18,094 nt of DNA from a virus: the UHGV virus genome UHGV-0036730, one strand, 5' to 3'. The notes beneath the pieces were generated by a model. The model made no database searches and was not told the origin of the DNA. It was given only the letters and a program-made list of their open reading frames with translations. Of the stretch, positions 874-14,646 are shown one piece after another; position 1 is the stretch's first letter, and each line of letters begins with the position of its first letter. Made by a program: the position numbers and the translations under genes.

Positions 874-2903
874 TTATGCTGATTCCCGGTTTTCGTTAAC
901 TTTGACTGTGACCGTATCAAGCAGTACCGGATACGTCGCTTTTGCCCCCGTGATATCTGTCAGCGTCAGCGTATCTGCTGTAAAGCCATCATTTGTCCAC
1001 ATCACAAGGTCAAACGCNNNNNNNNNNTAAAGCCATCATTTGTCCACATCACCAGGTCAAACGCAGACTGCTCTGTATCATCAATCACCGGCACCACTTT
1101 TTCGCTGTTATTTCCCGCAAAGCGGAAAACAACTGTATGCCAGTTATGGTCAAATGCCCCAAATGTGCCCAGTTGCGCATTCGACTCCCCCTTGTGGTAC
1201 ATCAGATTCAGATTTGATGCATCCGTCTGAAGGAAGAAGGACGCCAGCATGCTGTTTGCTGTCGCGCCTGACGCCCACTGCGACACCGGCCAGTACAGAC
1301 CAAAGACAAACTGACCGTTAACCAGTTCGACACCCTCCGGGATCTTAAACCGCACGGCAATTTCACCTCCCTTACTGAGAAGATTTTTTGCCTCCTCCAC
1401 CGCAACAGTACGGAACATCTTCCAGGAGGTCAGTTTACCCGGCTGTTTTTCCAGTCGCAGCGCCTTCCTGCCACTGTCATCCGTCACAGTGCCTTTACCA
1501 CCGGACGCATTCCACTGCTGCTCTGTCCATACACCACTGCCACTGTTCGCATCATATCCGGCCACCATTCTTGTTACGGCTTCAGTATGACCGCCTGCAG
1601 AAGTACCTGCACCCTGCTGTTGCGTCGGACCCGCAGAGCCAGACTGTGCATCCCCCGTGGAGGCTGGCGTGGTCGCCAGCGGTGCAGACTGCCCGCTCAG
1701 GAACGGCAGCAAACGCCCGGCTCGCACCAGTATCTCTCCTGCCAGCCGATCTGAAACAATGCCTCTTCGCGCCCAGGAGCTGAAGTGCGTTTTACGATCG
1801 GCTGTCGTCCAGTTACCATTACTGCGTGACGCGGCACCATAGTATCCCGCCGTGATAATGTCCGGATCTTCTGACGGCTCGTTTGTCGGCACATTCGCAC
1901 CATGCTCATCCGTCATCAACGGCACAAAGTGAATATTCTGCGCCGCCTTGCCTTTATAGCCTCCGTAAACCGCCTCATACTGCACTGCATACTTCGCCTT
2001 CCAGTCGTACGTGGTGTCACCGCAAATCCACGGGACGCCGGACGTTGTCCCGCCAATACACTGGTCTGCAATATCTGCCAGGTCTGCACGGTATTTATTT
2101 ACCATGGCAAGAAAAAGTGCATTGTGCTCTGCATGTCTCCCCGAACTGACATCTTTTTCCCCCTGCATCCAGATCACCGACAACAGCACGTTTTTCGGAT
2201 TTTTCTTCAGGGCTGCACGCGTTCTGCTGACCAGGTCACGATACAACGGTTTATCCACCCCCCACAGGGAAGAGCCCGCTGTCGCACCCGACGCCTCATT
2301 AAACGCGCCCTCTGCTCCCGCAGTAAATCCCGAATCGCCACGTCCACACGGGACAAGAAGGATCCCCGCACGGGCAGGCATAAACGGCAGCAGTTTTTTG
2401 GCCACATGCAGGGCATGCCCCACACAGCCATACTGCCCTTTATTGAGGTCTGCTTTCGGGTGATTCAGATTACTCACGTCCTGCACATCATGCAGACAAT
2501 GGTCTGCAGGAATAATGTCGTTATATGCACAGGCCGCACCGCCCGGTGTCACCGTGCTGCGACGCGCCAGTTGCTTAATACGCGGGTCAGGACGATCATA
2601 CGTATCCGGCAGCGGCAGCCCCTCGCCAAAAGACATCGAGTTGGACTGCCCGGCCAGCGCAATGACAAAGTAATATTCCGGTTCGCTGGTGGTGCTGATA
2701 ACAGCGCCACCATCACCCGACGGTTGCACCACCACCGGTGTGGTGACATCACCTTCCGCCGCAATGGCCTGCATCAGGGTATAGGGCGTGATGGCCACCG
2801 GACTGCCAAATGGCTGCCACCCCTCCTTCAGTTTTTGAGTCAGTCGCTCCGCAAGGTCTGACGGCGACGCCGCCCTGACCACGTCATAGTGTTTAAATGC
2901 CAT
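874..2903 (-). CDS. nanS-p: Prophage sialate 9-O-acetylesterase NanS-p (SGNH/sialate O-acetylesterase family); reading frame interrupted by an assembly gap
   Basis: Track ORF 1002..2903: N-terminus MAFKHYDVVRAASPSDLAERLTQKLKEGWQPFGSPV… is the recalled signature of Stx-prophage NanS-p. GGAGG ribosome-binding site 5 nt upstream of the ATG at 2903. The ORF runs into the N-run at 1018..1027; if the duplicated 37-nt flank is collapsed, my manual translation continues in frame (…WTNDGF-TADTLTLTDITGAKATYPVLLDTVTVKVNENRESA) to a TAA at 874..876, so the 3' end at 874 is inferred. Confidence 0.75.
1018..1027. other. Run of 10 N (scaffold/assembly gap) flanked by a near-identical 37-nt duplication (981..1017 vs 1028..1064)
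   Basis: Direct reading: 'taaagccatcatttgtccacatcacaaggtcaaacgc' + 10 N + the same 37-mer with one mismatch (a/c at 1006 vs 1053). Confidence 0.9.
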
Positions 2904-3097
2904 GAATCCTCCCGGTCGGGATAATGTTGTGAGTCAGATGAGGGAACGGGCTGAAGTCCGGAAGTTACAGGACAATGGCAGGAGGAAGACTACAGCCCGC
3001 AATACGAAAAAGGCCGCGCTATTGCGCAGAGTGATTACTGTCGGATATTATTCGCCAGCTGAAATATTACTTCACGTTTTGTTGTTTATTCCTTGCC

Positions 3098-3127
3098 GCC
3101 CGCGTCTCCCAGCGCGGGCTTTTTTTG
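3098..3127 (+). terminator. Rho-independent terminator (plus strand)
   Basis: Stem gcccgcg (3098..3104) / cgcgggc (3113..3119), 8-nt loop, then a T-run 3120..3126. Confidence 0.5.
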
Positions 3128-3128
3128 T

Positions 3129-3157
3129 CCATAAGAAAGCCCCTCCGGAGAGGGGCT
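3129..3157 (-). terminator. Candidate rho-independent terminator (minus strand), back to back with the plus-strand terminator
   Basis: Perfect 8-bp stem agcccctc / gaggggct with cgga tetraloop (3138..3157); on the minus strand it is followed by a U-rich tract (uucuuau). Confidence 0.35.
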
Positions 3158-3475
3158 GGAGAGTGGCGCTATGTGCCATTGCATGGTGCCGGGTGCCTCC
3201 CGGTGAGTTCAGTATCAGCACCTGAACCCGCACAGAAAGGATAAGGGTCGGTGACAAAACACCAGTTGCTGATTGCCCCTCCGCACAGGGGGATTCACCA
3301 TGCCAGTTTCTTTTAACAAACTCCCCGCAAACCAGACAACAGTCAACCGCCTGAATTGTGAGGTATTTAAAAATTTCAACGGGTAACTGATACCCTGCTA
3401 ATCGCCTGATGCTTTCTTTTTCAGCAACGGGGAAGCAACAACCACCACACCCACCAGCCGCCCATTTACCACAAA

Positions 3476-3500
3476 TAAAAAAGCCTTCACTGCGGAAGGC
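3476..3500 (-). terminator. Rho-independent terminator (minus strand) directly after the 95-aa ORF
   Basis: Minus-strand hairpin gccttc-cgcagt-gaaggc followed by uuuuuuauuugu; the stop codon of the 3487..3774 ORF lies in the stem. Confidence 0.5.
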
Positions 3501-3774
3501 GTCTGTAACAACCGAACTGATAGTCTGCCAGACCCGCCATAACCAGCTGGGTCAGTATTAACTGGCAGCGTTCGCGTGAAAGGTAAGTATTCTGCGCAAT
3601 CTCCCCGACTGTCGCCGGGTAGGTGACGCTTAATTCATTAAACACCACTCTGGCGGTTTCTGTCATATCCTGCTGTTTTAGCATGTCTTTTTCCCTTTTC
3701 CGGTTAACGTGACATACCAATAACTCTTGTCTAAAAAGCCAGCAAGCTGAAAGACAGGTATTCACCACCAGCAC
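3487..3774 (-). CDS. Hypothetical protein, 95 aa or shorter, first ORF after tR'
   Basis: Track ORF. Alternative starts at 3684 (MLKQQDMTET…) or 3666 (MTETARV…). It has its own terminator. It occupies the slot where Stx phages carry tRNAs and stxAB. Confidence 0.35.
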   Translation of the reverse strand: MLVVNTCLSACWLFRQELLVCHVNRKREKDMLKQQDMTETARVVFNELSVTYPATVGEIAQNTYLSRERCQLILTQLVMAGLADYQFGCYRRLPQ

Positions 3775-3803
3775 GTTTACTGTACTGATGCGATTTCAGT
3801 CAT

Positions 3804-3830
3804 AAAAAACCCGCCAGGCGGCGGGTTTAA
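3804..3830 (-). terminator. tR'-like rho-independent terminator downstream of Q
   Basis: Minus strand: aaacccgccgcc-tggcgggttt hairpin followed by uuuuuau. About 55 bp downstream of the Q stop, as for lambda tR'. Confidence 0.55.
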
Positions 3831-3885
3831 GTTGTGTGGCGTAGTAACCACTCTTAACATACTGACATACTTTTTGCGGACCGCG
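3831..3885 (-). promoter_or_regulatory. Presumed late promoter pR' / qut region (positional inference)
   Basis: The interval between the Q stop (3886) and the tR'-like terminator is where lambdoid phages carry pR' and the Q-utilisation site. I could not pin -10/-35 hexamers. Confidence 0.3.
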
Positions 3886-4278
3886 CTAATCATTTTTTAC
3901 TTTTTTGGGCAGCCAGTCGTCCATCTCCAGCCTTACACCCAGCATCGACAGACATCCGTCAATAAATCCTTCAGCAATCTGCATCTCAATTCGTATTGCC
4001 TTTTCGCTCTTCTTTCTTGTTCTGGCAATCTGCCTTTTTGATATGCGCAGCAGATAATGAGCTACCAGCAGCGAATACTCGTCCGGTTTTTTCTTCTTCA
4101 GGCGCGTAAGGCAGTTTTCGATGATAAGGCCGTCATCATCGCTGCAGGCCGGGCGAGGTTTAGCGGTGGATGGTAAAAGGCCTTTAAATCCAGCAGCTAT
4201 CGGAGAATAGTCCACCCCGGTGTTACCACTTGCCGCCCATGCGCCCCAGCGTTCAAGCACCTGCTGAATATCACGCAT
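3886..4278 (-). CDS. Antitermination protein Q, phage 21 / QuuD-like family
   Basis: Track ORF 3886..4383 trimmed to the ATG at 4278: [37 protein letters not shown]… matches the recalled QuuD/Q21 N-terminus (MRDIQMVLERWGAWAA…). Overlaps the ninH stop by 8 nt; followed by a tR'-like terminator. Confidence 0.7.
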   Translation of the reverse strand: MRDIQQVLERWGAWAASGNTGVDYSPIAAGFKGLLPSTAKPRPACSDDDGLIIENCLTRLKKKKPDEYSLLVAHYLLRISKRQIARTRKKSEKAIRIEMQIAEGFIDGCLSMLGVRLEMDDWLPKKVKND

Positions 4279-4471
4279 CAGAGTCTTTACCCTTATCCCA
4301 TCCACGATGGACCATAAGGACACCGTTGACGACGGCGTGCCGTTTGCCTTCTTTATCGCCAATATATTTTCTGACCGTGGCACGATTACAGTTCAGTATT
4401 CGGGCCACTTCGGTCTGATTTCCATATGCCTCAACAAGCATGTCAGGAATGATTTTTACGGTGAACGTCAT
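4271..4471 (-). CDS. ninH: NinH
   Basis: [58 protein letters not shown]… is near-identical in pattern to recalled lambda NinH ([36 protein letters not shown]…). Confidence 0.8.
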
Positions 4472-5037
4472 GCGGCCTCACTTCTGCTGTTTCGCAGGCC
4501 TTTAAGTTTCTGTTGATACTCTGCCTTGATCGCCTTGCACTCTTCGACAGTCCAGCGGTGGCGACTATGGTTTGATTCGATTTCGTCTACTGCTTCCTGC
4601 CCGATGCGGTTAATCAGTTCGACGCGATACGGAACGAGATTTCCGCTTTTGTATTGGTTACACACCACGCATTGCTTATGGATATTGCGTTCATCAAATC
4701 TGAGCTGAGGTGCCGCAGCTGTTGTACGGTAATGGCCAGCATCCCACTGGGCTGAATCTAACGTCCCGCATGAAACACACGGCAAATGACGGTCCCGCTC
4801 CCTGATATAAGCATTCACAGCCTGTTGTGCCTGCTTAATCCAGTAACTGCGGGGCTGTAAGTCCCTCCTGCGCGCTTTCAGCTTGTCTGCCTGCTCTTTT
4901 GCTGAAGTTATCGCCTTTTCTTTTCTGACCAGTTCCAGTGCGCACTGACCACAGCAAACTTTCTGATATGAGCGGAACGGCACAAACGAGGAGCCGCACA
5001 CTTTGCATTTTTTGGGTTTACGTTGCTTCATCATCAC
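4468..5037 (-). CDS. ninG: NinG / Rap recombination-associated protein
   Basis: …[96 protein letters not shown]… is near-identical to the recalled lambda NinG C-terminal two-thirds. ATGA overlap with ninH. Confidence 0.85.
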
Positions 5038-5038
5038 C

Positions 5039-5488
5039 TCAGAAAAACGACAGCAGGCGGTTATTCAGTTCAGGGCTGTTTGAGCGCCCAAACACATGCT
5101 TTAACGCGGCATTAATCATTGCGTTGTAGCAACGTTCAAACTCATCCTGATCCATATTCGCGTAACTCAGGCTTTTTGCCCGATATCTCACCTCGCCTCT
5201 TATGGTTGTGACCACATCATAGAACCCGGCAAGAATTGTCAGATTTTTACGAAACTCATCAAACTGCGTCGCTTCATCAGAGAATTCGTATCCAGCATGT
5301 TCAGCGCACCAGTACTGAAAGCAGAAATTAAGAAAAGCGAACATCTTCCGGTGAAAAGATGGGTTACGGGTAAGTTTTGCTTCCAGTGTATACAGCTCAC
5401 CGTTTTTAAATTTTGCCAGTCGGGGTAAATCGCGCTCATACGCCGGTACAAATACGCCATTAGCCGCCTTGATCATCTCTATTTCCAT
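5039..5488 (-). CDS. Phage protein in the NinB position (DUF1367-like; family assignment tentative)
   Basis: Track ORF of 149 aa; start overlaps the primase stop (TGATG). No convincing match to lambda NinB from memory. Confidence 0.45.
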
Positions 5489-6459
5489 CAGGCAGCCTCC
5501 GCTTTGAATTTGCGCGTCAACACATGTTCACGGGCTTCACACCCCTGAATGAGCATGTCGTTAAAATCCGGCAAGTCAGGCCAGCGAATGCTGACCTTCT
5601 CAACGTCATTACGACTCATGAGATTCTTATGCCCACATTTAAAGGCAGCCGCCAGACCTGCGCCGTGCTCATCATTGTCTGCAAAGATAATCAGGTGATT
5701 AACGCCTGGTGGCGCAATAAACTTCTCCATAAAACCGGAGTTCATTGTTGACCACACATTGCAGCGGAAGATTTGACGGCATGAAAGCGCAGTTTCGATA
5801 CCCTCGGCTATCCCCAGAGTGGACGACACCGGATACAGGCGTATTGCCACCGATTTGGCATGCTGCAAACCAGGCAACTCCTGTAGCGCAGTCATTTTTT
5901 TAGCCGCCTCTACATTCGCCTTGCGATCACCATCCAGCAACGTACGATGCAGATAGCAAAGAGAACCTTTGTCATCTGTTGCAATGGCGTAAATTGCCTG
6001 ATATTCGCGCCCGCTGGCGATCTGACGGTCACAGAAACGCACGGATTCGGTCGGTAACTGGAGTATTCCCCTCCCCTGCAGGTACGCCTCACCTGTTGTG
6101 CCCCGCAGACACGGGAGTCCGGCAAACTTATCCATGACCCGCTCCCGTTCTCTGGCAATATCCGTTACAGTGCGTCTGGCATGCCCTCTCTTCCAGGTAT
6201 TACCAACCAGTCGATCGACTTCATCGCACAGATCAACCCAGGGCTTACCCGTGGCAAGTTGCAACAACTTCATCCCGTCCCCGTGACCACAGACACAAAT
6301 CCATGAACCGGAACCATCCTTATCATCACAGCGAAATTTACCTCTGGCACCACATATCGGGCAGGGGCCGCTATAATGTTTCAAGCCAGTAACAGGAGGC
6401 ATGCCGTAATATTCAAAAATTCGCCCCCAATGCCCGGCCGCTGCCTTCTTAGTCTGCAT
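5488..6459 (-). CDS. DNA primase, P4-alpha-like zinc-ribbon + TOPRIM domain protein
   Basis: N-terminal CPICG…CDDKDGSGSWICVCGHGDG zinc-binding motif; C-terminal IIFADNDEHG (TOPRIM DxD-type acidic motif). Overlaps the helicase stop. Confidence 0.65.
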   Translation of the reverse strand: MQTKKAAAGHWGRIFEYYGMPPVTGLKHYSGPCPICGARGKFRCDDKDGSGSWICVCGHGDGMKLLQLATGKPWVDLCDEVDRLVGNTWKRGHARRTVTDIARERERVMDKFAGLPCLRGTTGEAYLQGRGILQLPTESVRFCDRQIASGREYQAIYAIATDDKGSLCYLHRTLLDGDRKANVEAAKKMTALQELPGLQHAKSVAIRLYPVSSTLGIAEGIETALSCRQIFRCNVWSTMNSGFMEKFIAPPGVNHLIIFADNDEHGAGLAAAFKCGHKNLMSRNDVEKVSIRWPDLPDFNDMLIQGCEAREHVLTRKFKAEAA

Positions 6460-7969
6460 GCTGGCCTCCTGTCATGGCTTTCTTGCGCCCTTTGGCATAG
6501 GCAATGGTCTTTGACTTGATGAAGTTGTACACTTCAACTGAGGTTTGCAGCGGCGCATTACTGAAGCCTTTAGGCCACACACCGAACTTCTCCTTGTAGG
6601 TATGAGCGCACCATCCGTCACTCAGGGGTTTACCCGTCGCGTTGCGGTAATTCTGATAACCCTTGATCTCACTCCACCAACGCTGTTTTTCCTCACGGGT
6701 GTATTCGCGTTTCCCTTTGTTGACGCGTGAAAGCTTACGATCGCGATCTGTCGCCACGTCATCACCACCAAGTGGGCGAAATCCACATTTGGGACACATG
6801 TGTACACCAGCAGGCTTCATGAAGTGGCATTTGGGGCATTCTCTGGGAAGTTTTTCAGCTTTAACCTCGCCACCGCCAGCAGACGCTTTCATTCCGTCAT
6901 TTTTTCCCGGAAGTTCGTCATACTCGATATCCTCGGGGAAGCCCAGCCGATGAACCGTACCGGAATGGTCGAAAATCAATGCGCGTTTTTTACCAGACGC
7001 AGTACGTAACGCTCTCCCGATGCACTGCAACCAGCGGATTTCTGATTTGGTCGGACGGGCGTAGATCAGGCAGCGAACATCGCTGTCAAATCCCGCAACC
7101 AGTACGCCGACGTTGACAATTATTTTGGTCGCACCATCTTCAAAACGGCGAATGATATCCTGCCGTTCATCATGGGGGGTATCTGCCGTCATCACCTCTG
7201 CGCCAATGCCAGACTGTAAAAACTCACGGGTAACAAAGTTCGCATGAGCCACGTTCACGCAGAAGCAGATCGTCGGTAAATCCTCGCCATTCTCAAGCCA
7301 GTTGCTAACGATATCGCCAACCAGATCCGAACTCCCCATGATGGATGCGAGCTGTTCCTCGTTGTAATCCCGTCCAAATACGGTGTTACTGGTTTTTACG
7401 CCAGTCAGATCAGGCATTGAGGGGGCAAAAAACTCGTAATCGCTCAGATCACCACGCTGAATAAGTTCACGAATCGTTGTAGGCTTGATCAGGCATTCGT
7501 AGTACTTCCCCATCCAGGCTGCGAATGGGGTGCCGGAAAGTCCAAGAACCCTGATGTCTCTGTCCCGGATAACCTCAAGTAACGCACGACGCTTCATGTG
7601 TGCTTCATCGATGATCAGCAGATCGATGTTGTCAGGAAACTCACGACGGATCAGCGTGTCGGCACTGGCAATCTGAATCAGTCGTGACGGGTCATAGTTA
7701 GGGTGATCACGCCATACAAAACTGATTTCTTCCCACGGTAAACCGTATTCGGTGAAACGTTCCGCTGTCTGGTTCAGCAGGATGGTGTACGGACAGACAA
7801 ACATCACCCGCATACCACGTTCAACCATTCCGGCGGTGACGAATGCTGCAAGACCAGTTTTGCCAGAGCCAGTGGGTGCGTACATCAAGTACGTGCGATG
7901 CTGTTTCCACTGGTGCCGCAGCTGGTTTAAACCGCGCTCCTGAGCAAAGTTTGGGATTATTTTCAGCAT
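6449..7969 (-). CDS. Superfamily-2 DEAD/DEAH-box replicative helicase with C-terminal zinc ribbon
   Basis: Walker A APTGSGKT; DEAH box LLIIDEAHM; C-terminal CPKCHF…CPKCGF. 506 aa, operonic with the primase. Confidence 0.7.
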   Translation of the reverse strand: MLKIIPNFAQERGLNQLRHQWKQHRTYLMYAPTGSGKTGLAAFVTAGMVERGMRVMFVCPYTILLNQTAERFTEYGLPWEEISFVWRDHPNYDPSRLIQIASADTLIRREFPDNIDLLIIDEAHMKRRALLEVIRDRDIRVLGLSGTPFAAWMGKYYECLIKPTTIRELIQRGDLSDYEFFAPSMPDLTGVKTSNTVFGRDYNEEQLASIMGSSDLVGDIVSNWLENGEDLPTICFCVNVAHANFVTREFLQSGIGAEVMTADTPHDERQDIIRRFEDGATKIIVNVGVLVAGFDSDVRCLIYARPTKSEIRWLQCIGRALRTASGKKRALIFDHSGTVHRLGFPEDIEYDELPGKNDGMKASAGGGEVKAEKLPRECPKCHFMKPAGVHMCPKCGFRPLGGDDVATDRDRKLSRVNKGKREYTREEKQRWWSEIKGYQNYRNATGKPLSDGWCAHTYKEKFGVWPKGFSNAPLQTSVEVYNFIKSKTIAYAKGRKKAMTGGQHAD

Positions 7970-8349
7970 GACGCCCCCTTGCTACGTGATTTACCCGTTG
8001 CCGGGATCACGTCGATCTCATCGCTAACGTATTGATCCGGATTACATGAACAGCGCAGAAGCACGATACCAGGAATGCCGTATAGCTTGAGTCTGCGCAG
8101 TTTCAGTATTGAACGTGCCCGTGGTGACGCTCTGTCCACCTCGATCGCGCACCGTTCACCAGATGGGGCAACGACCATGATATCGACGAATCCGCGCTTA
8201 CCGTTGCCCATATCAACCAGATAATTACGTTCGATCGCCAGTCCGGCATCACGCAATTTGGCAGCCAGCACATAATCAAACGTGACCTTGTCTTTTCCGG
8301 TGTAGAATTTGTTTCCGAGCAGGCTGATAACCACATGTTTGATGAACAT
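7963..8349 (-). CDS. Hypothetical protein, 128 aa, first gene of the replication operon
   Basis: Track ORF overlapping the helicase start by 7 nt; possible PD-(D/E)xK-like motif (GFVDIMVV…ERCAIEVD), speculative. Confidence 0.4.
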   Translation of the reverse strand: MFIKHVVISLLGNKFYTGKDKVTFDYVLAAKLRDAGLAIERNYLVDMGNGKRGFVDIMVVAPSGERCAIEVDRASPRARSILKLRRLKLYGIPGIVLLRCSCNPDQYVSDEIDVIPATGKSRSKGASC

Positions 8350-8570
8350 GGTACTATTTCCACTGTGATAGTTAGCACAATAATAATTTCGCCAGAAACT
8401 ATCGCGCCCTATACAGTGATCTACCTAACCTATGGAGCTGCCTTCCTCTGGTAGTGCCCTTACGGGCACGGATGTTACAGATCTGCCCCCTTACCCCCTT
8501 CTTAGTAAAATTTCAAGCCAAATAATTTCACATGAAATTATTTCACAAAAAATAATCACCTTGATGAGGT
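8350..8570. promoter_or_regulatory. Intergenic region with palindromes and AT-rich iteron-like repeats; candidate replication origin and/or promoter
   Basis: 16-bp palindrome gtgccc-ttac-gggcac (8454..8469); inverted repeat aataatttca-ca-tgaaattatt (8521..8542); reiterated (a)aattt(t)ca motifs 8505..8560; two GATC-containing tacag(t)gatct repeats (8411..8421, 8475..8484). Confidence 0.25.
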
Positions 8571-8852
8571 CTATTCCTTCCGTATCGCTACTGGCGAAAG
8601 CATCCAGCCACGGCTGGCTCTCGCGTACTTCTGGACATACACCCGTAACCGGGTGTTGGCGCTCCGTCTTGCCCTGTTGCCCTTCCTGAACGATACAGGC
8701 TCCTTGTCCCACTCTTCCTGGTACACTCTCGCGTACTCTGCTGCAATTTTTACCCGGGTGGTCGGGTCTAGCTGTAACAATTGCTCCTGTATCCAGTCCC
8801 GATCAGCATCGCTGTACTGATCGGGCATAACCGTTTTGATTTGCCTGTTCAC
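8571..8852 (-). CDS. Hypothetical protein in the cII position (no recognisable similarity to lambda cII)
   Basis: Track ORF (GTG at 8852; alternative ATG at 8828 giving MPDQYSD…). Basic C-terminal half. Immediately downstream of cro. Confidence 0.4.
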   Translation of the reverse strand: MNRQIKTVMPDQYSDADRDWIQEQLLQLDPTTRVKIAAEYARVYQEEWDKEPVSFRKGNRARRSANTRLRVYVQKYARASRGWMLSPVAIRKE

Positions 8853-8882
8853 TCACACCTCCGATGGGCTGTGTGTCCAGGA

Positions 8883-9086
8883 TTAATCATCGCCTCTTAC
8901 GAACGCAGGGAACGGTCGAACCTCTTCCGCCTCAACTCTGCCGTCATCAAAGGTTTTGACGTAAATTTCACGTCCGACAAGAAGCGCTTTACTGATCGCG
9001 CTCTGCGCCACACCAAAGTCCTTAGCGGCTTTCTTCTGACCGAACCTGTATACGTAATCAGCCAGGGTCTCTTTTTTCATCGCCAT
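8883..9086 (-). CDS. cro: Cro repressor (lambda Cro family)
   Basis: Track ORF 8883..9122 trimmed to the ATG at 9086, which has an AAGGAG ribosome-binding site with 7-nt spacer. [60 protein letters not shown] parallels recalled lambda Cro (…[36 protein letters not shown]…AEEVKPFP). Divergent from cI. Confidence 0.8.
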
Positions 9087-9181
9087 AACTGACTCCTTCA
9101 AAATGCCCATATCATTACGCACAGTTATTAAAATGTCAACACCGCAGATATTTCATTACATATAACCAAAGGTGATATGGT
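9087..9181. promoter_or_regulatory. cI-cro divergent promoter/operator region (OR-like)
   Basis: 95-bp intergenic region between divergent cro and cI. Minus-strand TTGACA (plus tgtcaa 9134..9139) is suitably placed as a -35 for a PR-like promoter. Inverted ccatatca / tgatatgg elements (9107..9114 and 9173..9180) are candidate operator half-sites. Operators not defined with certainty. Confidence 0.4.
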
Positions 9182-9895
9182 ATGAACATGAAAAAGAAAC
9201 CGTTAACCCCTGAGCAACTGGAAGACGCCAAGCGTCTGAAAAGTATTTTTAACGCTAAAAAGAAAGAGTTAGGCCTGTCGCAGGAATCATTAGCCTATGA
9301 ATTAGGTGTTACCCAAAGCGCTGTTAATCAGCTAATGGCTGGCATCAACGCCATAAATGCCAGCCACGCAGCACAGCTTGCTAAGATACTGAATGTAAAG
9401 GTCGGAGATTTCAGTCCCAGCCTGGCAAAATCTATTGCAGAAATGGCGCTCGCAATTGAAGAGCCATTAACTCGTGTCCCCGCTTACGAATATCCGTTAC
9501 TCTCCTGCGTACAAGCTGGCGCATTCTCAATGGATGATATTTCGTACACCGCAAAAGATGCGATTAAATGGATCTCCACCACCACAAAAGCCAGTGACAG
9601 GTCGTTCTGGCTGGAGGTCAAGGGGCATTCAATGACCGCACCGCAGGGTGGTAAACCCAGCTTCCCTGAAGGTATGCTGATACTCGTTGACCCTGAACGG
9701 GAAATCGAGGATGGCGATTTTTGCGTGGCCCGAATGAACGGCGATGAATTTACCTTCAAACGATTCATTCGTGAGAGCGGTAAAGCGTACCTGGAGCCGC
9801 TCAACCCACGATTCGACATGATTGAGTGTAACGAAAACTGCCAGTTTGTCGGAAAGGTCATCAAATCGCAGTGGAATGATGATACTTTTGATTGA
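9182..9895 (+). CDS. cI: CI repressor, lambda CI family (HTH DNA-binding domain + S24 LexA-like autocleavage domain)
   Basis: 237 aa; collinear with recalled lambda CI along the whole length (KKKPLT.EQLEDA.RLK…LGLSQES…FSP……EYEYP…VQAG.FS…[33 protein letters not shown]……GDFC.AR..GDEFTFK…). Confidence 0.9.
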
Positions 9896-9991
9896 GCTCA
9901 CAGAGCGATATTAATAACCTTGCCGGGAGATGCTTGGGAAGCGATTTTCTGGCATTATTATCTGAGTTGCCCACAACCTATAGAGTCTTAC

Positions 9992-10153
9992 ATGAAAAAA
10001 TCATTTGCTGTATTGTTCGTTTTGTTGTCACTGGTAGCTTCGACTCAATCATTCGCTGGTCGTTGCCAACACGACAATGATACCGCTGCTGACGGCTCTC
10101 GTTGTGGTGGTCGTTCTGCTGATTCTCGTCCTGGCGGTGGTGGTATTCGCTAA
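9992..10153 (+). CDS. Small exported peptide (53 aa, predicted signal peptide, Gly/Arg-rich mature part with 2 Cys)
   Basis: ATG at 9992: MKKSFAVLFVLLSLVASTQSFA | GRCQHDNDTAADGSRCGGRSADSRPGGGGIR. Stop 10151..10153 is followed at once by a hairpin. An overlapping alternative-frame ORF (10077..10316) makes this call uncertain. Confidence 0.3.
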   Translation: MKKSFAVLFVLLSLVASTQSFAGRCQHDNDTAADGSRCGGRSADSRPGGGGIR

Positions 10154-10157
10154 AAAC

Positions 10158-10185
10158 AAGGCCGCTTTCCCGGCCTTTATTTCAA
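10158..10185 (+). terminator. Candidate rho-independent terminator
   Basis: Stem aaggccg / cggcctt with 6-nt loop (10158..10177) followed by a T-rich tract. Confidence 0.4.
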
Positions 10186-10332
10186 TACGTTCAGACAGAA
10201 TTTTTGGCCTGTTGTTAACTAGTAACCTGAAGAGACGTTTGGGTGATGTTTGGGTGATTTTAGTTGTGATTAACGAAAACTATGGTGCAACATCTTATAG
10301 TAAATTGTTAATATAACAAGGTATTGTATCAA

Positions 10333-11235
10333 ATGAGCCAAAATCTTGATTCAACACTAGAAACATACATCTCTTGGCAGTTAGAGCAATTTAAGGATAA
10401 ATTTTTCCCAAACTGTGACGTCATTGCGTACTACGGTGGCATCTTTCCATGGTCAAAAGAAGTTTACCAGCCAAAACTTGAAGCTATTGGTGAGATGGCT
10501 AACAGTCGTACCAATAAATTTCTTGTTATTATACTCAATACAAACGGTGGTTCTGTTGAGTCTGTAGAAAAAATGGTAGAAATTACAAGGCATTTCTACC
10601 AAGAGGTATATTTTATCATTCCAGACATGGCTATGTCGGCAGGTACAATATGGTGCATGTCTGGAGATAAAATTTACATGGACTATGCTTCTTCATTAGG
10701 ACCTATTGATCCTCAAGTGCAATCGTCGGACGGTAAATGGGTTCCCGCTTTGGGATACCTTGATAAAGTTGAAGAAATGATTAATAAATCCAGAGAAGGA
10801 ACCATTACCCAAGCTGAACTGATGATGCTTAGTCAGTTAGATCTGGCGCACTTGCGGAGATATGAGCAAGCCAGAGAACTATCAATAGACTTGCTTAAGA
10901 AATGGCTTGTGGAGTATAAATTTAGAGAGTGGACAGTTCATCAGGGTAACACAAAACGAGGAAAGCTAGTTACCAAGAGGGAAAAGGAAGCGAGGGCTAA
11001 AATGATCGCTACCGCTCTTAGTGACAACGGAAAGTGGCATTCTCACGGAAGAACGATAGGAATAAACACTCTTATCAATGATTTAAGGATAAAAGTAGAA
11101 GACTTTACATACGATAAAGATTTTAGCATGGCGTTAAAAAATATACATAACGTCATTAATGAATACATGTATAAAACAAATCGACAGGTTCTTGTTCTGT
11201 CTTCTTTCCCTTTTCCAGAACAAAGTGAGTCATAA
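10333..11235 (+). CDS. ClpP/crotonase-fold serine peptidase, S49 (SppA) / SDH-like family, no signal peptide
   Basis: Track ORF 10324..11235 (TTG) trimmed to the ATG at 10333. ILNTNGGSVESVEKMVEIT aligns with the ClpP INSPGGVITAGMSIYDTM region; IIPDMAMSAGTIWCMSGDKIYMD carries the A-x-S-x-G catalytic-serine motif (ClpP GQAASMGA / SppA AASGGY). The ClpP His position is IDPQ here, so a Ser-Lys (S49-like) mechanism is inferred. Lies in a locally AT-rich block. Confidence 0.6.
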   Translation: MSQNLDSTLETYISWQLEQFKDKFFPNCDVIAYYGGIFPWSKEVYQPKLEAIGEMANSRTNKFLVIILNTNGGSVESVEKMVEITRHFYQEVYFIIPDMAMSAGTIWCMSGDKIYMDYASSLGPIDPQVQSSDGKWVPALGYLDKVEEMINKSREGTITQAELMMLSQLDLAHLRRYEQARELSIDLLKKWLVEYKFREWTVHQGNTKRGKLVTKREKEARAKMIATALSDNGKWHSHGRTIGINTLINDLRIKVEDFTYDKDFSMALKNIHNVINEYMYKTNRQVLVLSSFPFPEQSES

Positions 11236-11406
11236 ATGAACAAAGACAAATCCCTGACACAACAAGTGGAAGAAATACTTAGCAAGCAAAAAGTTAGCGA
11301 GCAAGGAAAAATGATTCAATCATTAAAGAACAGGGGCTTGATCAACAAGCCTGTTTTTACTTTGGCTTATGGACCAGATATTACAACCTGCCAAATGCAC
11401 CAATAA
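11236..11406 (+). CDS. Small protein (56 aa) translationally coupled to the peptidase
   Basis: ATG at 11236 directly abuts the peptidase stop (TAA-ATG). MNKDKSLTQQVEEILSKQKVSEQGKMIQSLKNRGLINKPVFTLAYGPDITTCQMHQ, stop 11404..11406, then a strong terminator. Below the 60-aa cut-off of the ORF track. Confidence 0.4.
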   Translation: MNKDKSLTQQVEEILSKQKVSEQGKMIQSLKNRGLINKPVFTLAYGPDITTCQMHQ

Positions 11407-11437
11407 CAAAACCCGGCCTTGGTGCCGGGTTTTGTTT
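11405..11437. terminator. Bidirectional rho-independent terminator between convergent operons
   Basis: acccggc-cttggt-gccgggt hairpin (11411..11430) flanked by aaaa / tttgttt, so it is U-rich after the stem on both strands. Sits between the peptidase cassette (+) and hicAB (-). Confidence 0.6.
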
Positions 11438-11522
11438 GCCTCCTGCTCGCCCCACCATTTACCAGTGCGCCGTAAATTCCCCATTCTTCGTGGCGGTGAG
11501 GATGTCAAAGACGAAGGGAACA

Positions 11523-11867
11523 TTAAGCCCCTGTGTGATGGTTGACTTCTTTTTCCAGCGCCTTATTAACAAAGGCGTTCAGTGATAAATCTTCTTCCAT
11601 CGCCATTTCTGCTACCCGACGATGCAGTTCTGGATCAAGCCTGACGTTAAACACACCTTTAAACGGGGTATCAGGCTCCTTTCCATCCTCCACACAAGAC
11701 TGTAAATACAGCTCAACCGATGTCTTAAACTCCTGTTCCAGTTCAGCTAATGTAGAAGCCTCATAAGTTACCAGGTCTCGAATAAACGCCAGTTTTCCGT
11801 ACAGGATATTATTTTCAAAATCTGGTTCTACTGTACCTAAATACCCTTTATATTTTAGATGCTTCAT
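11523..11867 (-). CDS. hicB: HicB-family antitoxin (N-terminal HicB fold + C-terminal ribbon-helix-helix)
   Basis: 114 aa; YKGYLGTVEPDFENNILYGKL…EASTLAELEQEFKTSVELYL… then GVFNVRLDPELHRRVAEMAMEEDLSLNAFVNKALEKEV, the characteristic HicB RHH tail. ATGA overlap with the upstream hicA. Confidence 0.75.
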   Translation of the reverse strand: MKHLKYKGYLGTVEPDFENNILYGKLAFIRDLVTYEASTLAELEQEFKTSVELYLQSCVEDGKEPDTPFKGVFNVRLDPELHRRVAEMAMEEDLSLNAFVNKALEKEVNHHTGA

Positions 11868-12112
11868 AATACCCCAGCCTCTTTCAGATTCTGTTTAATC
11901 GCTTTCAGCGTTCCACCTTTAATATAACTTTCTGGATGTGGGCGATGCATTAATATGGTGTGGTTGATTTCAGCATTGAAAAACCGCACTCTTGAGCCCT
12001 GCATTTCCTTTTTGACATCTCCCAGAGAGGAAAACAAAACGACCAGCTCATCCCATTCAAACGTTTTTTTACTGTTTAAAAACTTTTCCAGTAGCTTATC
12101 TGCTTTCCCCAT
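11864..12112 (-). CDS. hicA: HicA-family toxin (mRNA interferase)
   Basis: Track ORF 11864..12118 (GTG) trimmed to the ATG at 12112. …LLEKFLNSKKTFEWDELVVLFSSLG…HTILMHRPHPESYIKGGTLKAIKQNLKEAGVL follows the HicA/YcfA pattern. Upstream of and overlapping hicB. Confidence 0.7.
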   Translation of the reverse strand: MGKADKLLEKFLNSKKTFEWDELVVLFSSLGDVKKEMQGSRVRFFNAEINHTILMHRPHPESYIKGGTLKAIKQNLKEAGVL

Positions 12113-12268
12113 ACCCACATAATCTCATCTTCGCTACATTGCAACTAATTATAGTTACAGACAGTGTTTTTGTCAAAAGCCACCAAGCCCGCTGGGTTCT
12201 CTTTGACTGTTCGCTGCTTTTCCTGGTGTTATCCGGGGGCTTTTCCCTCACGCCAAATCTCACACAGA

Positions 12269-12294
12269 GTAACCGGCCCGCGCCGGCTTTTCTT
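12269..12294 (+). terminator. Candidate rho-independent terminator in the ORF-poor leader
   Basis: Stem ccggc / gccgg (12273..12286) followed by cttttcttt. Confidence 0.3.
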
Positions 12295-12917
12295 TGACCG
12301 CACTCCGCTAACCGCCCCCTTGAAAAATAAATCACTTTAAAAATCAGTTAAGTAATATTTTTTTGACCCCAATAACCACCAACGGTATTTACACAAAAAT
12401 CACCGCAAGTTATATTTATTTCAAGCCAGAAACATCGCGCCCTTACACAGGGCTACATAAATCAGTCGTACGGCGCGACTTAACCCGCCGCAAAATGCTC
12501 TTTAACAATCTGGAGCTTTACAGCGTCAATGACCTGTTTAGACCCCTACACGTAAACGTGCTGTATCATCGGGTGCGATCCGGTCGATGAGAGAGTATCC
12601 CCGCGCGAGAGCGAGAACGGCGTGAGAACGGGCAACACTGGCAGGAAGTTGGCGCTGACCAATACAGGGAATGTTTTGGGGTGTGGTGAAGGGTTCATGG
12701 ACGGGAATATGTCGCACGTAAAGCGGCGAGGCCCGAGGGACTATTGCTGAAGATAAGTAGGCCGAATCGGGTCGAAATGGGTCTCCCACCTGCCACATCG
12801 CCAAAGCGTTTCTGAGAAAGGACGGTATTGACTGCGTGTGATGTCGGGGCTATATTTGGCGAACACCTCATAAAACGGGTGTCGGGATTGCTACCCCGCT
12901 GACAATCGAGGCGATAC

Positions 12918-12939
12918 AGACGCGCCAGCGTCTTTTTTT
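12918..12939 (+). terminator. Rho-independent terminator upstream of rha (tL-like position)
   Basis: Stem agacgc / gcgtct with gcca loop (12918..12933) followed by a T-run (12933..12939). Confidence 0.45.
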
Positions 12940-13104
12940 GTATCGACATACACGCACATCTTATCAATGGTGGGCTGTATGGGGCCGACTTCGGTCGGGC
13001 TGGTTCCCTTGATTGCCAGTTGTAGCAACCCTGTACAGTCCACCGCCAGCGAGCTTGCTACCTCCAGCGGTGGTTATCAATCACCAATCAAGGAGGCTGC
13101 CATT

Positions 13105-13752
13105 ATGGCTACTATCCCAGTCCTTTCTCAACCTGAAATCACCATTTCCAATGGTCGCGTTATCACAACGTCTATTGCTATTGCTGAATTTTTTGACAAG
13201 CGGCACGACGACGTTTTAAAAAAAATCCGATTGATGGATTGTTCTACGGAATTTAACGCCCGCAATTTTTCGGACGTTACCTACACCGACGCCAAAGGCG
13301 AACAACGCCCAATGTACCAAATCACCAAAAACGGATTCGTTTTCCTGGTGATGGGGTTCACTGGCAAAAAAGCCGCCGCTTTCAAAGAAGCCTACATTGC
13401 TGAATTCGATCGCATGGAAAAACAACTATGGGAACAGAAACAACTGGCCCTGTCTTCTCCTGCGATGAATATCAATTTTCCTTTATCGTGGTTTTCAGAG
13501 CATCACCCCTACGCCACGATGAACTATGTTGATCGCAAGGTTATCAGCCTTGATGCTTCCGTGCTCTTCGATATGCCAAGCCCAACTATGCGCATCCTCA
13601 ACGAGCTACACAGCAAAGGCTATAACGTCGATGCGGCTGTCGCCGAATTTAACGCCTTCAAGCATCTGACGGAAGAAATGCGCCGTCAATTGCTGGACAT
13701 TTCCCGCACATCGGAAAAGTCTTCCCGCTTTGGTTTCAACGTAAATCTTTAA
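13105..13752 (+). CDS. rha: Rha-family phage regulatory protein
   Basis: Track ORF 12967..13752 trimmed to the ATG at 13105, which has an AGGAGG ribosome-binding site at 13091..13096 (8-nt spacer). The N-terminus (…SNGRVITTSIAIAEFFDKRHDDVLKKIR…) fits the Rha domain as I recall it. Confidence 0.65.
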   Translation: MATIPVLSQPEITISNGRVITTSIAIAEFFDKRHDDVLKKIRLMDCSTEFNARNFSDVTYTDAKGEQRPMYQITKNGFVFLVMGFTGKKAAAFKEAYIAEFDRMEKQLWEQKQLALSSPAMNINFPLSWFSEHHPYATMNYVDRKVISLDASVLFDMPSPTMRILNELHSKGYNVDAAVAEFNAFKHLTEEMRRQLLDISRTSEKSSRFGFNVNL

Positions 13753-13822
13753 TTAACCCCATCCCCGACCACATATCGGGGATTAAATTAAATATCTGGA
13801 TTAATTAACCGGAGGATTTGTC

Positions 13823-14035
13823 ATGCTCAAACCTCACTACGGAACCGCATTAGTTTCTCGCGAGGACGTTAAACCCGGCACAGCAATTCTTTACAACGGG
13901 CGTTATTACATGGCGTCAGCGAACGTTAATAATGCACTTTACGCACATTCACTGATTGAAAAAATTCGCATTATCTCAGATGCAATAGAAGTTTACCTGA
14001 ACAATAAAGGCCAACCGTTAATCTCACCAGCCTGA
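13823..14035 (+). CDS. Hypothetical early protein, 70 aa
   Basis: Track ORF with GGAGGA ribosome-binding site upstream (ccggaggatttgtcATG). Confidence 0.4.
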   Translation: MLKPHYGTALVSREDVKPGTAILYNGRYYMASANVNNALYAHSLIEKIRIISDAIEVYLNNKGQPLISPA

Positions 14036-14046
14036 AAGGAAATATC

Positions 14047-14328: not shown

Positions 14329-14348
14329 CCGGAATCAGGAGTTCCGCC

Positions 14349-14630: not shown

Positions 14631-14646
14631 TTTTCAGGACCAAAAA

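Follow-up and report, generated by a model that had tools for sequence, protein, structure and literature searches.

The region 2904-3830 of the window (the whole stretch of DNA analyzed here, 18,094 nt of the virus genome UHGV-0036730) is very probably the cargo ("moron") slot of a lambdoid E. coli prophage that resembles Stx phages, located in its late operon; the slot holds no cargo, and its distal border is a convergent pair of small RNA (sRNA) genes. By homology, this border consists of two known small regulatory RNA genes arranged tail to tail, which also border the slot in real Stx phages. Since the pair is already known at this border, the arrangement is an ordinary, previously described one. 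The empty slot is the product of a ~2.2 kb deletion between short imperfect repeats, which took a DNA methylase gene, three tRNA genes, TerB and two thirds of the gene for a DUF3927 protein, leaving the 3' end of the latter as a scar.

Organization of the late region

The late genes are on the minus strand, in the order Q (3886-4281), a hairpin (3800-3828), a small ORF with its terminator (3477-3500), back-to-back hairpins (3098-3157) and nanS-p (1002-2903). This gene order (Q, small ORF, terminators, nanS-p), proposed in the preliminary description of the sequence, is real: the ORFs and hairpins were re-found, including both convergent terminators, plus- and minus-strand, of the segment 3098-3157 in the terminator scan, and Q and nanS-p carry Pfam domains. 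The region contains six terminator-like sites, compared to 2.0 +/- 1.7 in shuffled sequences.

The Q gene encodes 131 amino acids as annotated in identical RefSeq copies; the mechanically called ORF (3886-4383) begins at a GTG at position 4383, and the start of the RefSeq homologue is at 4281. The product matches PF06530 (E 5.5e-52) and phrog_79, "anti-termination protein Q-like" (E 8.5e-48), and the locus is 99.7% identical to a RefSeq-annotated one (L003). The late promoter pR' with its transcript start would lie within 3829-3885(-), as positions 3804-3860 (57 nt) share 77% identity with the sequence directly downstream of Q in the Sakai prophage Sp5, where the pR' start has been mapped by dRNA-seq (PMC7547250). 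The consensus sigma-70 scan of the minus strand gave no match that reached its threshold here, and a base-level placement was abandoned, as the sequence is insufficient for it.

The G+C-rich hairpin with the following U6 (3800-3828, minus strand) starts 58 nt downstream of the Q stop codon. It has a 9-bp stem (3806-3828), and a 56-nt stretch here folds at -18.3 kcal/mol (z -3.5); the terminator scanner did not list it. The hairpin is kept in a Stx2a phage (L002) with one C-to-T (wobble) change. Comparison with the mapped Sp5 transcript (PMC7547250) places the homologous hairpin at +24..+51, the first hairpin there, distinct from the tR' mapped by Term-seq. The element labeled tR' earlier (3804-3830) is a candidate for tR' or a leader hairpin.

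The next gene is a conserved ORF of 65 codons (3487-3684, minus strand). In the Stx2a phage, in O104:H4 and in other prophages, its copies are annotated as coding sequences of 198 nt that follow Q. The 95-aa ORF of the preliminary description (3487-3774, minus strand, counted from an upstream GTG) exists as an ORF, but the conserved gene, according to the annotation of its homologues, has only 65 codons. Its product matches phrog_331 (E 2.8e-37), is identical in 62 of 65 residues to that of the prophage locus L013, and has no match in Pfam or NCBIfam. Some copies are named "TrmB family transcriptional regulator" by PGAP. The intrinsic terminator identified by the scan (3477-3500, minus strand) overlaps the stop codon, and its hairpin (3483-3500) carries a T-run. 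The block 3447-3560, which includes this terminator, is 95-100% conserved in L002, L007 and L013.

The following ~570 bp had been considered non-coding. While the small ORF and its terminator are indeed present in the slot, this interval contains the gene of the STnc100 sRNA, an antisense sRNA gene and a remnant of a DUF3927 gene. The RefSeq annotation here consists solely of a spurious pseudogene antisense to STnc100. The first gene past the slot, nanS-p (1002-2903, minus strand), encodes a sialate O-acetylesterase with DUF1737, SASA and DUF6645 domains; its homologues are annotated as SASA family carbohydrate esterases.

In this layout, late transcription would proceed right to left from Q through the late promoter just after Q, the leader hairpin, the 65-aa ORF and its terminator. 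Upon induction, judging from near-identical EHEC and EPEC copies, Q-modified polymerase would pass the minus-strand terminators and reach nanS-p and the lysis genes.

Loss of the cargo

A search for a deletion or replacement scar by alignment, suggested in the preliminary description, located a junction at 3447-3464 in comparison with L013, with the microhomology ACACCC-CCA-CAGC. In particular, positions 3300-3464 correspond to L013 3461-3625 (97% identity), and positions 3447-3560 to L013 5784-5897 (95.6%), with an overlap of 18 bp. The terminator region of the 65-aa ORF is thus joined to the middle of the DUF3927 gene, and since only the 3' end of the latter follows, a deletion of ~2.2 kb is implied. 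Of 5426 E. coli genomes, 201 have the same junction, and phage PhiR5_1 has it as well.

The remnant of the gene for the DUF3927 small membrane protein, its last 21 codons and the stop codon, occupies 3398-3464 on the minus strand, as identified by tblastn and blastn. Residues 32-54 of the L013 protein match positions 3466-3401 with 82.6% identity (tblastn, E 2e-6), and for more than 1400 genomes, the blastn matches of the remnant coincide with annotated DUF3927 genes. The comparison shows that the lost cargo was the methylase-tRNAs-TerB-DUF3927 block, and that stx was not part of it.

Relation to Stx-converting phages

No tRNA was found by ARAGORN in the whole window or by Rfam in 2600-4500 at E<=10. 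Searches with Stx2A, Stx2B, the methylase and TerB (tblastn) and with the Sp5 tRNA-stx block (blastn) gave no match, and stx1 and stx2 left no trace as ORFs, in tblastn or in blastn. The earlier observation that tRNAs and stx-sized ORFs are absent therefore agrees with these searches, and the sensitive search for tRNA or stx remnants that could have overturned it came out empty. The backbone is Stx-phage-like, as had been suggested: positions 4230-16268 are 94-97% identical to a Stx1a prophage, with a mosaic boundary at ~4230, inside the 5' end of Q, and the module of Q and the small ORF also occurs in Stx2a phages. Among complete E. coli genomes, none contains 80% or more of the whole window at a single location.

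It is, still, quite unlikely that the window descends from a Stx phage that directly lost stxAB and the tRNA genes, with the scar marking the former toxin locus. The identity of the early region to the Stx1a prophage (94-97%), the presence of the Q-small ORF module in Stx2a phages, where it is followed by the methylase, tRNAs and stx2AB, and the position of the sRNA pair 3' of stx in Stx phages are all consistent with such an origin. However, what adjoins the junction on the side of STnc100 is the DUF3927 3' end, 97% identical to the TerB-DUF3927 cargo of L013, and not the 75-nt spacer between stx2B and STnc100; the homology to the Stx2a phage L002 ends at 3361, short of the DUF3927 remnant; and neither tblastn nor blastn detected any remnant of stx. 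Moreover, the terminators do not stand in place of the tRNAs and stx, as had been proposed: in Sakai Sp5 the same convergent pair follows stx2B, and in Stx1 phages it follows stx1B. Being located behind the toxin genes in true Stx1 and Stx2 phages, it is no stand-in for them.

The order Q, late promoter, slot, STnc100, antisense element, nanS-p, small ORFs and holin is shared with the Stx phages 933W/Sp5, AP005153 (a Stx1 phage) and Stx2_EH2201 (a Stx2a phage), while stxAB, the tRNAs and the methylase are absent from the window. Of the features that define Stx-converting phages, Q and nanS-p are present, while the segment from Q/pR' to the lysis genes has neither stxA nor stxB, and the tRNAs (ileZ-argN-argO in Stx phages) are missing. 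The Q protein of the window is of the 131-aa, PF06530 type, compared to the 144-aa Q933 of Sp5 and of the Stx1a prophage (L139). StxS of Stx1 and Stx2a phages, the 3' 74 nt of the 258-nt pR' transcript, is linked to the 144-aa Q; in the window, the resemblance to Sp5 ends ~57 nt past Q (77% up to there), the rest of the Sp5 interval between Q and the tRNAs has no match, and no StxS was assigned here.

The sense small RNA

The sRNA gene sense to the late operon (3127-3332, minus strand) is STnc100 (Rfam RF02076): the covariance-model search gave 143.2 bits (gathering score 47, E 3.7e-33) over positions 1-206 of the 206-position model. Its terminator is the minus-strand hairpin (3138-3157), which the preliminary description had left unrecognized as the end of a full-length STnc100. 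STnc100 occupies the same place in the Stx2a phage L002, Sakai Sp5, the Stx1a prophage L139 and prophages of O157 and O104, and its location here, in a lambdoid late region downstream of Q or the cargo, is the one expected for this RNA. Transcription is known from the EDL933 and Sakai copies: the EDL933 copies are transcribed, one being Northern-verified (PMC5331693), and the Hfq peak EcOnc05 of Sakai Sp4 maps to window positions 3148-3271.

STnc100 is related to PasD1/PasD2 (Zhu, Shabalina and Storz 2026 preprint), and shares with PasD2, as described, the location between Q and a sialate esterase. The assignment of the minus-strand RNA to PasD was ruled out, as STnc100 proper matches at full length; the PasD2 region of E2348/69 has just a weak 48-nt match to the window, and no STnc100 match at the gathering level was found by Rfam at that locus. 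Neither is the plus-strand RNA PasA or PasC: PasA is located beyond the esterase, ~2.2 kb from PasD2, and nothing in its region resembles the window.

The antisense small RNA

The plus-strand terminator, taken earlier as a sign of a short divergent transcript, marks a small antisense RNA that is 95-99% identical to Hfq-bound EHEC and EPEC sRNAs of the EcOnc08/EcOnc21/EcOnc42 family. The gene is located at ~3057-3126 on the plus strand, with an uncertain 5' end that may lie further upstream. It comprises a GU-rich stretch (3075-3088), the putative seed CCUUGCC (3091-3097), the terminator stem (3098-3119) and U7 (3120-3126). The RNA is convergent with the sense sRNA, ends in a terminator with a U-tract and abuts the STnc100 3' end at 3127, and its CCUUGCC is complementary to GGCAAGG, the RIL-seq target motif of the EPEC sRNA E2348C_1409.E2348C_1408.IGR, whose EHEC homologues are EcOnc08, EcOnc21 and EcOnc42 (sequence in Fig. 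S5 of PMC8550237). Over 2997-3127, the window differs from E2348/69 in one nucleotide, in the loop, at 3111.

A short promoter is predicted at 3022-3051(+), with the -35 box TTGCGC (3022-3027), an 18-nt spacer and the -10 box TATTAT (3046-3051), which would set the start at 3057-3058. It is below the threshold of the consensus scanner; its hexamers are kept in the diverged copies L007 and L008, and it aligns with the -35 TTGCGC and -10 TAAAAT of AsxR in Sakai Sp5, the Rfam 5' end of AsxR being 6-7 nt past its -10.

The antisense RNA folds at -16.9 kcal/mol (z -3.7). The L007 copy has compensatory stem changes, and compensatory or wobble changes are confined to the L007 and L008 types. In viral contigs, 28 distinct variants were identified; an exact 14-mer scan of these contigs yielded mostly chance matches, with the sRNA signature in 53 of 130. 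The covariation test was set aside, as the true copies are too alike. Of 5426 E. coli genomes, 1337 carry the RNA; it is also present in 58 phage records, Stx1 and Stx2a phages among them.

EcOnc08 and EcOnc21 have Hfq-CRAC peaks and a Northern signal of ~271 nt in Sakai (Tree et al. 2014 Table S2, PMC4104026). The EcOnc08 peak of Sp4 maps to 3052-3124 and the EcOnc21 peak to 2961-3046, given that the mapping was done on NC_002695.2 with zero offset assumed at Sp4, while NC_002695.1, used in the papers, differs by ~137-142 bp at Sp5. The 182-nt EPEC RIL-seq feature corresponds to window positions 2946-3127; hence both the Northern product and the RIL-seq feature are longer than the predicted 70-nt form. 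The upstream part of a possible longer form is 2932-3056(+), which contains the EcOnc21 peak and is preceded by a promoter-like site ATGCCA-17-GATAAT (2897-2925, 9 of 12 matches).

By analogy with the EHEC and EPEC copies, both RNAs would be made in the lysogen from their own promoters, end at their own intrinsic terminators and be bound by Hfq; for the antisense copy, we infer both Hfq binding and expression in the lysogen. The antisense RNA may pair with the cfa, dppA, pcm, tir and perA mRNAs via CCUUGCC and the adjacent GU-rich stretch. RIL-seq chimeras with cfa (767), dppA (197) and pcm (118) map to the 3'-terminal 20-35 nt. In predicted duplexes with cfa and dppA, the seeds pair at the expected place, with energies no stronger than those of shuffled seeds.

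Several other readings of the hairpins and the plus strand were considered. That the main plus-strand product is a longer RNA (~180-270 nt) with its start at the 5' end of nanS-p or within it, acting in cis as an antisense to nanS-p translation or late transcription, with trans targets being secondary, seems unlikely. The Northern and RIL-seq lengths (~271 and 182 nt), the second Hfq peak (EcOnc21), the overlap of the promoter-like site with the nanS-p start and the conservation of 2904-3030 (~90% even in comparison with the AsxR locus) point to it; against it, the L007 copies lacking nanS-p keep only the short promoter, seed and terminator, the chimeras are at the 3' end, and for the positional allele AsxR, the homologous promoter yields a primary transcript of 54 nt. 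We regard as very improbable a mere bidirectional insulator between the cargo slot and nanS-p, yielding no functional sRNAs. Two strong convergent terminators a few bases apart could block read-through both ways, but the minus-strand hairpin forms the 3' end of STnc100, which is matched over its full length, the plus-strand one is preceded by conserved -35 and -10 boxes and a single-stranded seed invariant in diverged copies, and near-identical copies of the RNAs are Hfq-bound, Northern-positive and present in RIL-seq chimeras.

There is hardly any chance that the 107-aa plus-strand ORF (2902-3225) is a real gene, like the divergent iraM-like gene of some Stx2a phages. It is present in the ORF list, its residues 15-44 match phrog_31368 (E 1e-17), and a plus-strand "iraM" gene lies between STnc100 and nanS-p in L002 and L014. 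However, its product is not similar to that of the L002 iraM and has no Pfam or NCBIfam match, the ORF crosses two terminators as well as sequence antisense to STnc100, its frame is broken among close homologues by 1-nt indels (at 2942 and within the T-run), and RefSeq annotates no gene for it. On the similarity and indel evidence, a coding reading of the plus strand, iraM-like or 107-aa, was rejected, and the antisense sRNA is retained as its content.

Comparison with known convergent pairs

Tree et al. (2014, Mol Cell; PMC4104026) reported pairs of convergent sRNA genes in lambdoid prophages of EHEC, at the pR' moron site: in Sakai Sp4, EcOnc05 (sense) is paired with EcOnc08/EcOnc21 (antisense), and EcOnc42 is 3' of stx1 in Sp15. 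The pair of the window has the same place, between the cargo and the conserved nanS-p ORF, the same orientation and the same tail-to-tail terminators. Its identity to Sp4 is 95.5% over 2850-3373, and the antisense sRNA is 98.3% identical to that of the Stx1 phage of O157:H7. Unlike Sp4, with three tRNAs, and Sp15, with stx1AB, the window has no cargo before the pair. In EPEC E2348/69 (Pearl Mizrahi et al. 2021, PMC8550237), the seed CCUUGCC and the neighbors, a STnc100 remnant and a nanS-p-like gene, are the same; there, STnc100 is truncated beside ISEc13 (75 bits) with tRNAs upstream, whereas in the window it is full-length.

AsxR (RF02703) and AgvB (RF02702) share with the window antisense sRNA the site, the strand and the convergence with STnc100, being short Hfq-type RNAs with an intrinsic terminator. 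Alignments with Sakai Sp5 confirm the antisense place in the convergent pair and the common promoter region, and according to Rfam, AsxR immediately adjoins the 3' end of STnc100, like the antisense sRNA here. The identity to the AsxR locus is ~90% over 2880-3030 (the flank and -35), but ~42% over the sRNA body, that is, the cassette is different. The window RNA is ~70 nt long, compared to 51-60 nt in AsxR and AgvB. Its seed, the GU-rich stretch with CCUUGCC, differs both from the 5' end of AsxR, which is complementary to FnrS, and from the CACAACA mimic in AgvB. Rfam yielded no AsxR or AgvB match at E<=10, and the attributes of that class (a model match, the conserved ~42-nt 3' region and the 51-60 nt length) were not observed.

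Discussion

Both RNAs and their convergent layout are already published, and because of that the discovery value is low; the value for annotation is in an sRNA pair that is unmarked in a prophage late region. The sRNA pair is a constant border of the cargo slot, with or without stx. The antisense sRNA is found in approximately one quarter of complete genomes of E. coli, those of O157:H7 and O104:H4 among them, and its RIL-seq partners cfa, dppA and tir are candidate targets. The junction demonstrates that clean cargo loss is possible by a microhomology deletion; at least one phage, PhiR5_1, which was isolated on E. coli C, has the same junction.

We tentatively suggest, as a somewhat doubtful possibility, that the antisense site is a cassette locus, where a shared flank and -35 box drive interchangeable bodies (AsxR, AgvB or EcOnc08 type), and that the EcOnc08-type body here is a GcvB-like phage-borne repressor. 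If so, the GU-rich stretch and CCUUGCC might base-pair with the cfa leader and, in dppA, with the C/A-rich region of the GcvB site, and such a repressor would be the functional opposite of AgvB, carried by sibling prophages at the same site. Since the pair survives the loss of all cargo, it would belong to the phage backbone and not to the moron.

Organization of the cargo slot

The interval between Q and nanS-p (2904-3830) consists of known elements, namely an Rfam sRNA family, an unnamed Hfq-binding sRNA, a published convergent layout, and a deletion scar; the finding is genuine, though not out of the ordinary. The preliminary description of the sequence was accurate: Q, a hairpin, a small ORF, terminators, and nanS-p are all confirmed. 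The late genes are all oriented on the minus strand. Q is encoded there (ORF 3886-4383; Pfam Phage_antitermQ PF06530, E=5.5e-52), with a start at 4281, yielding 131 aa, in the annotation of identical RefSeq copies. The minus-strand ORF 1002-2903 has the phage sialate O-acetylesterase architecture of nanS-p (DUF1737, SASA, DUF6645). A G+C-rich hairpin with a U-run is located at 3800-3828 on the minus strand (fold z -3.5), and between Q and nanS-p there are a minus-strand terminator (3477-3500) and back-to-back hairpins (3098-3119 on the plus strand and 3138-3157 on the minus strand). The region contains six terminator-like sites, compared to 2.0 +/- 1.7 in shuffled sequences. The absence of tRNA and stx genes was also borne out, as no tRNA was identified by ARAGORN in the whole window or by Rfam in 2600-4500 (E<=10), tblastn of the window yielded no match to Stx2A, Stx2B, the slot methylase or TerB, and blastn of the tRNA-stx block from Sakai prophage Sp5 against the window was empty.

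The small ORF had been described as encoding 95 aa, while the conserved gene is its 65-aa form (3487-3684, minus strand; phrog_331, E=2.8e-37), which matches no Pfam or NCBIfam family and is labelled a TrmB-family regulator in some PGAP annotations. A 107-aa ORF (2902-3225, plus strand) was rejected as a gene: it does not resemble the iraM-like gene occupying that position in the Stx2a phage Stx2_EH2201, it spans two terminators, and its frame is broken in close homologues by 1-nt indels, at 2942 and in the T-run. Certain Stx2a phages and other prophages have a divergent gene annotated as iraM (anti-adaptor) between STnc100 and nanS-p, as in Stx2_EH2201 (locus L002, 2588-2911, plus strand) and locus L014 (2942-3278, plus strand); in the window this plus-strand position is held by the EcOnc08-type sRNA flank.

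Window positions 3804-3860 share 77% identity with the beginning of the Sp5 pR' transcript; the remainder of StxS has no counterpart in the window. In the Sp5 locus (L015) this transcript starts near 1846 according to dRNA-seq, and Term-seq places tR' 258 nt downstream, at hairpin 2076-2104 (PMC7547250). The Sp5 hairpin homologous to the first hairpin of the window, at +24 to +51 of the transcript, is not the mapped tR'; at 1869-1896 it is strongly terminator-like, with T7, yet the Term-seq end is at +258. In the window, either 3806-3828 or 3483-3500 may terminate the late transcript.

Deletion scar

Homology to Stx2_EH2201 falls into two blocks, 3447-4280 (Q, the small ORF and terminator; 90.6%) and 3131-3361 (STnc100), between which the phage carries a methylase gene, three tRNA genes, and stx2AB (2.84 kb in total). 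The 85 bp between these blocks in the window are known sequence rather than novel, and over 1400 genomes have annotated DUF3927 genes that match 3340-3465. In E. coli EC67 the slot order is Q, the 65-aa ORF, methylase, three tRNAs, TerB, DUF3927, STnc100, nanS-p; window positions 3300-3464 correspond to 3461-3625 of this locus (97%) and 3447-3560 to 5784-5897 (95.6%), the two alignments overlapping at an 18 bp imperfect repeat ACACCC(A/G)CCA(C)CAGC. Given the DUF3927 matches and this overlap, the window is a derivative of a TerB-DUF3927-type slot with a deletion of about 2.16 kb, retaining the last 21 codons of DUF3927 (3398-3464; tblastn E=2e-6). Of 5426 E. coli genomes, 201 have the junction, as does one phage record, PhiR5_1 (recorded host E. 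coli C), hence the deletion appears to be compatible with a functional phage. In strain SCU-482 it lies beside a different Q allele, indicating spread by recombination.

Sense sRNA

The minus strand at 3127-3332 matches STnc100 (RF02076) over its full length (model positions 1-206), scoring 143.2 bits where the gathering score is 47 (E=3.7e-33), the model terminator being hairpin 3138-3157. STnc100 was found at the equivalent position in every relative fetched: directly 3' of stx2B in Stx2_EH2201 and Sp5 (207 bits), 3' of stx1B in a Stx1a prophage (195 bits), and likewise in O157:H7 and O104:H4 prophages without stx. It has been reported that the stx2 operon is followed by STnc100 75 nt downstream (PMC12370729), that EDL933 has 11 transcribed copies, one of them verified by Northern blot (PMC5331693), and that PasD1 and PasD2 of EPEC are regarded as STnc100 relatives (bioRxiv 10.64898/2026.05.13.724894).

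E. coli SW071611 carries a tandem pair, at 2722-2931 (165.6 bits) and 3209-3414 (141.4 bits) of locus L004, about 85% and 98% similar to the window copy, respectively, so this module can be duplicated or stacked via recombination. Neither sRNA of the slot is annotated by RefSeq/PGAP; instead, many genomes have a pseudogene for a "hypothetical protein" called on the strand opposite STnc100 (window ~3173-3313, plus strand; 4270-4410 in the 99.7% identical RefSeq locus L003), and this is probably a systematic mis-annotation.

Antisense sRNA

The suggestion that the plus-strand terminator marks a small RNA proved correct, since 95-99% identical copies are Hfq-bound in EHEC and EPEC. Pearl Mizrahi et al. 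2021 print this sequence (Supplementary Fig. S5) as RIL-seq sRNA candidate E2348C_1409.E2348C_1408.IGR (NC_011601 1444797-1444978, minus strand, prophage PP6), with EHEC homologues EcOnc08/EcOnc21/EcOnc42 (PMC8550237, crediting Tree et al., 2014). The E2348/69 locus has a single difference from window positions 2997-3127, in the loop, and its sRNA 3' end adjoins an STnc100 remnant. For Sakai Sp4, Tree et al. list three Hfq peaks, EcOnc05 (plus strand, ~222 nt), EcOnc08 and EcOnc21 (minus strand, ~271 nt) (Table S2; PMC4104026). Mapped via NC_002695.2 (95.5% identity to the window), they correspond to 3148-3271 on the minus strand, inside STnc100, and to 3052-3124 and 2961-3046 on the plus strand, respectively. 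The papers use NC_002695.1, and zero offset was assumed at Sp4, as only then do the peaks coincide with the RNAs predicted here; this assumption has no bearing on the match to EPEC. The Sakai coordinates of Tree 2014 and Sy 2020 are offset relative to NC_002695.2 at Sp5 (about +137-142 bp) and apparently not at Sp4, and mapping EcOnc features onto NC_002695.2 requires correction. Published work places EcOnc42 of the Stx1 phage on the 3' side of stx1 (PMC7547250), consistent with a 98.3% identical copy between stx1B and yjhS/nanS-p in AP005153 (Stx1 phage of O157:H7). A 2021 review gives the function as unknown (PMC7873438).

The predicted promoter (3022-3027 and 3046-3051, start at 3057-3058) would yield an RNA of about 70 nt, with seed CCUUGCC at 3091-3097, stem at 3098-3119, and U7 at 3120-3126; the 62-nt stretch 3066-3127, covering most of the sRNA and its terminator, has a fold energy of -16.9 kcal/mol (z -3.7). 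Of 5426 complete E. coli genomes, 1337 contain the 232 bp that separate the nanS-p start from the end of the plus-strand terminator, O157:H7 and O104:H4 being among them. In two diverged copies (74-83% identity; L007, without nanS-p, and L008) conservation is confined to the final ~85-110 nt, with the -35 box (TTGCGC/TTGCAA), the 18-nt spacer, the -10 box TATTAT, the stretches CTTCACGTTT and TTCCTTGCC, and a terminator hairpin in which one change is a wobble and another is compensatory (G-C to A-T). Length estimates differ: the conserved promoter implies ~70 nt, the RIL-seq annotation 182 nt, and the Sakai Northern blot ~271 nt, and transcription from a promoter-like site at 2897-2925 would yield ~195 nt.

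The convergent architecture is already published: Tree et al. described, for lambdoid prophages, sRNA genes that converge within the moron site 3' of pR', exemplified by AsxR (EcOnc02) and EcOnc27 3' of stx2B in Sp5, with the equivalent layout in Sp3, 4, 9, 10, 11, 15, and 17 (PMC4104026). According to Rfam, Sp5 STnc100 (L015 3923-4128, plus strand) and AsxR (4130-4182, minus strand) are tail to tail, exactly as in the window. The back-to-back terminators do not substitute for tRNAs and stx, as formerly considered, but constitute a constant border at the distal end of the slot; the pair is also found 3' of stx in Sp5. In a global alignment to Sp5, identity is ~90% in the nanS-p start, intergenic flank and -35 box (2880-3030), ~42% in the spacer, -10 box and sRNA body (3031-3097), 76% in the terminator (3098-3126), and 66% in STnc100 (3127-3332). 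Hence the antisense sRNA is a positional allele of AsxR, sharing the flank but differing in the transcribed cassette; it belongs to neither the AsxR nor the AgvB family of Rfam (no match at E<=10). The antisense site might function as a cassette locus.

Prophage backbone and other elements

No complete E. coli genome has 80% or more of the window at a single location. Positions 4230-16268 are 94-97% identical to the Stx1a prophage of STEC2018-553, which to the left of 4230 has Q933, stx1AB, STnc100, and a diverged nanS-p. The mosaic boundary at ~4230 falls inside the Q 5' end, and leftward (Q body, slot, nanS-p) identity to this prophage is 71-78% or absent; the window therefore combines a Stx-phage backbone with a different Q-slot module.

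Gathering-level Rfam matches to isrK (12863-12938, plus strand; 61.8 bits) and C4 antisense RNA (12963-13050, plus strand; 77.4 bits) are adjacent, just upstream of a 261-aa ORF (12967-13752), and the pair, also present in Stx2_EH2201, looks like a P1/P7-type c4-controlled antirepressor module. A plus-strand terminator-like hairpin at ~833-870 (CCGCCAG...CTGGCGG followed by T8), missed by the terminator scanner due to its long loop, is antisense to the late genes between the DUF1378 ORF and the nanS-p end, where EPEC has the antisense sRNA PasA; its sequence has no similarity to EPEC PasA and no Rfam match above noise.

Proposed action of the antisense sRNA

Near-identical copies of the antisense sRNA are Hfq-bound, Northern-positive, and present in RIL-seq chimeras (PMC8550237, PMC4104026), with the 5'UTRs of cfa (767) and dppA (197), and with pcm (118), perA (30), tir (29), and espC (26), the sRNA portion being the 3'-terminal 20-35 nt (PMC8550237). 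The motif GGCAAGG, common to the targets, is complementary to the seed CCUUGCC. In pairing checks, the cfa leader offers CGGCAAGGG as the partner of UUCCUUGCC (3089-3097), and 3077-3097 pairs with dppA -43 to -21 over 21 nt; neither pairing energy is better than for shuffled seeds, so these pairings represent consistency, not evidence.

By analogy with these copies, the window sRNA may have its own promoter, constitutively active in the lysogen, and may regulate host and virulence mRNAs in trans via Hfq. Upon induction, as expected from established lambdoid biology, Q-modified polymerase should pass the minus-strand terminators into nanS-p.
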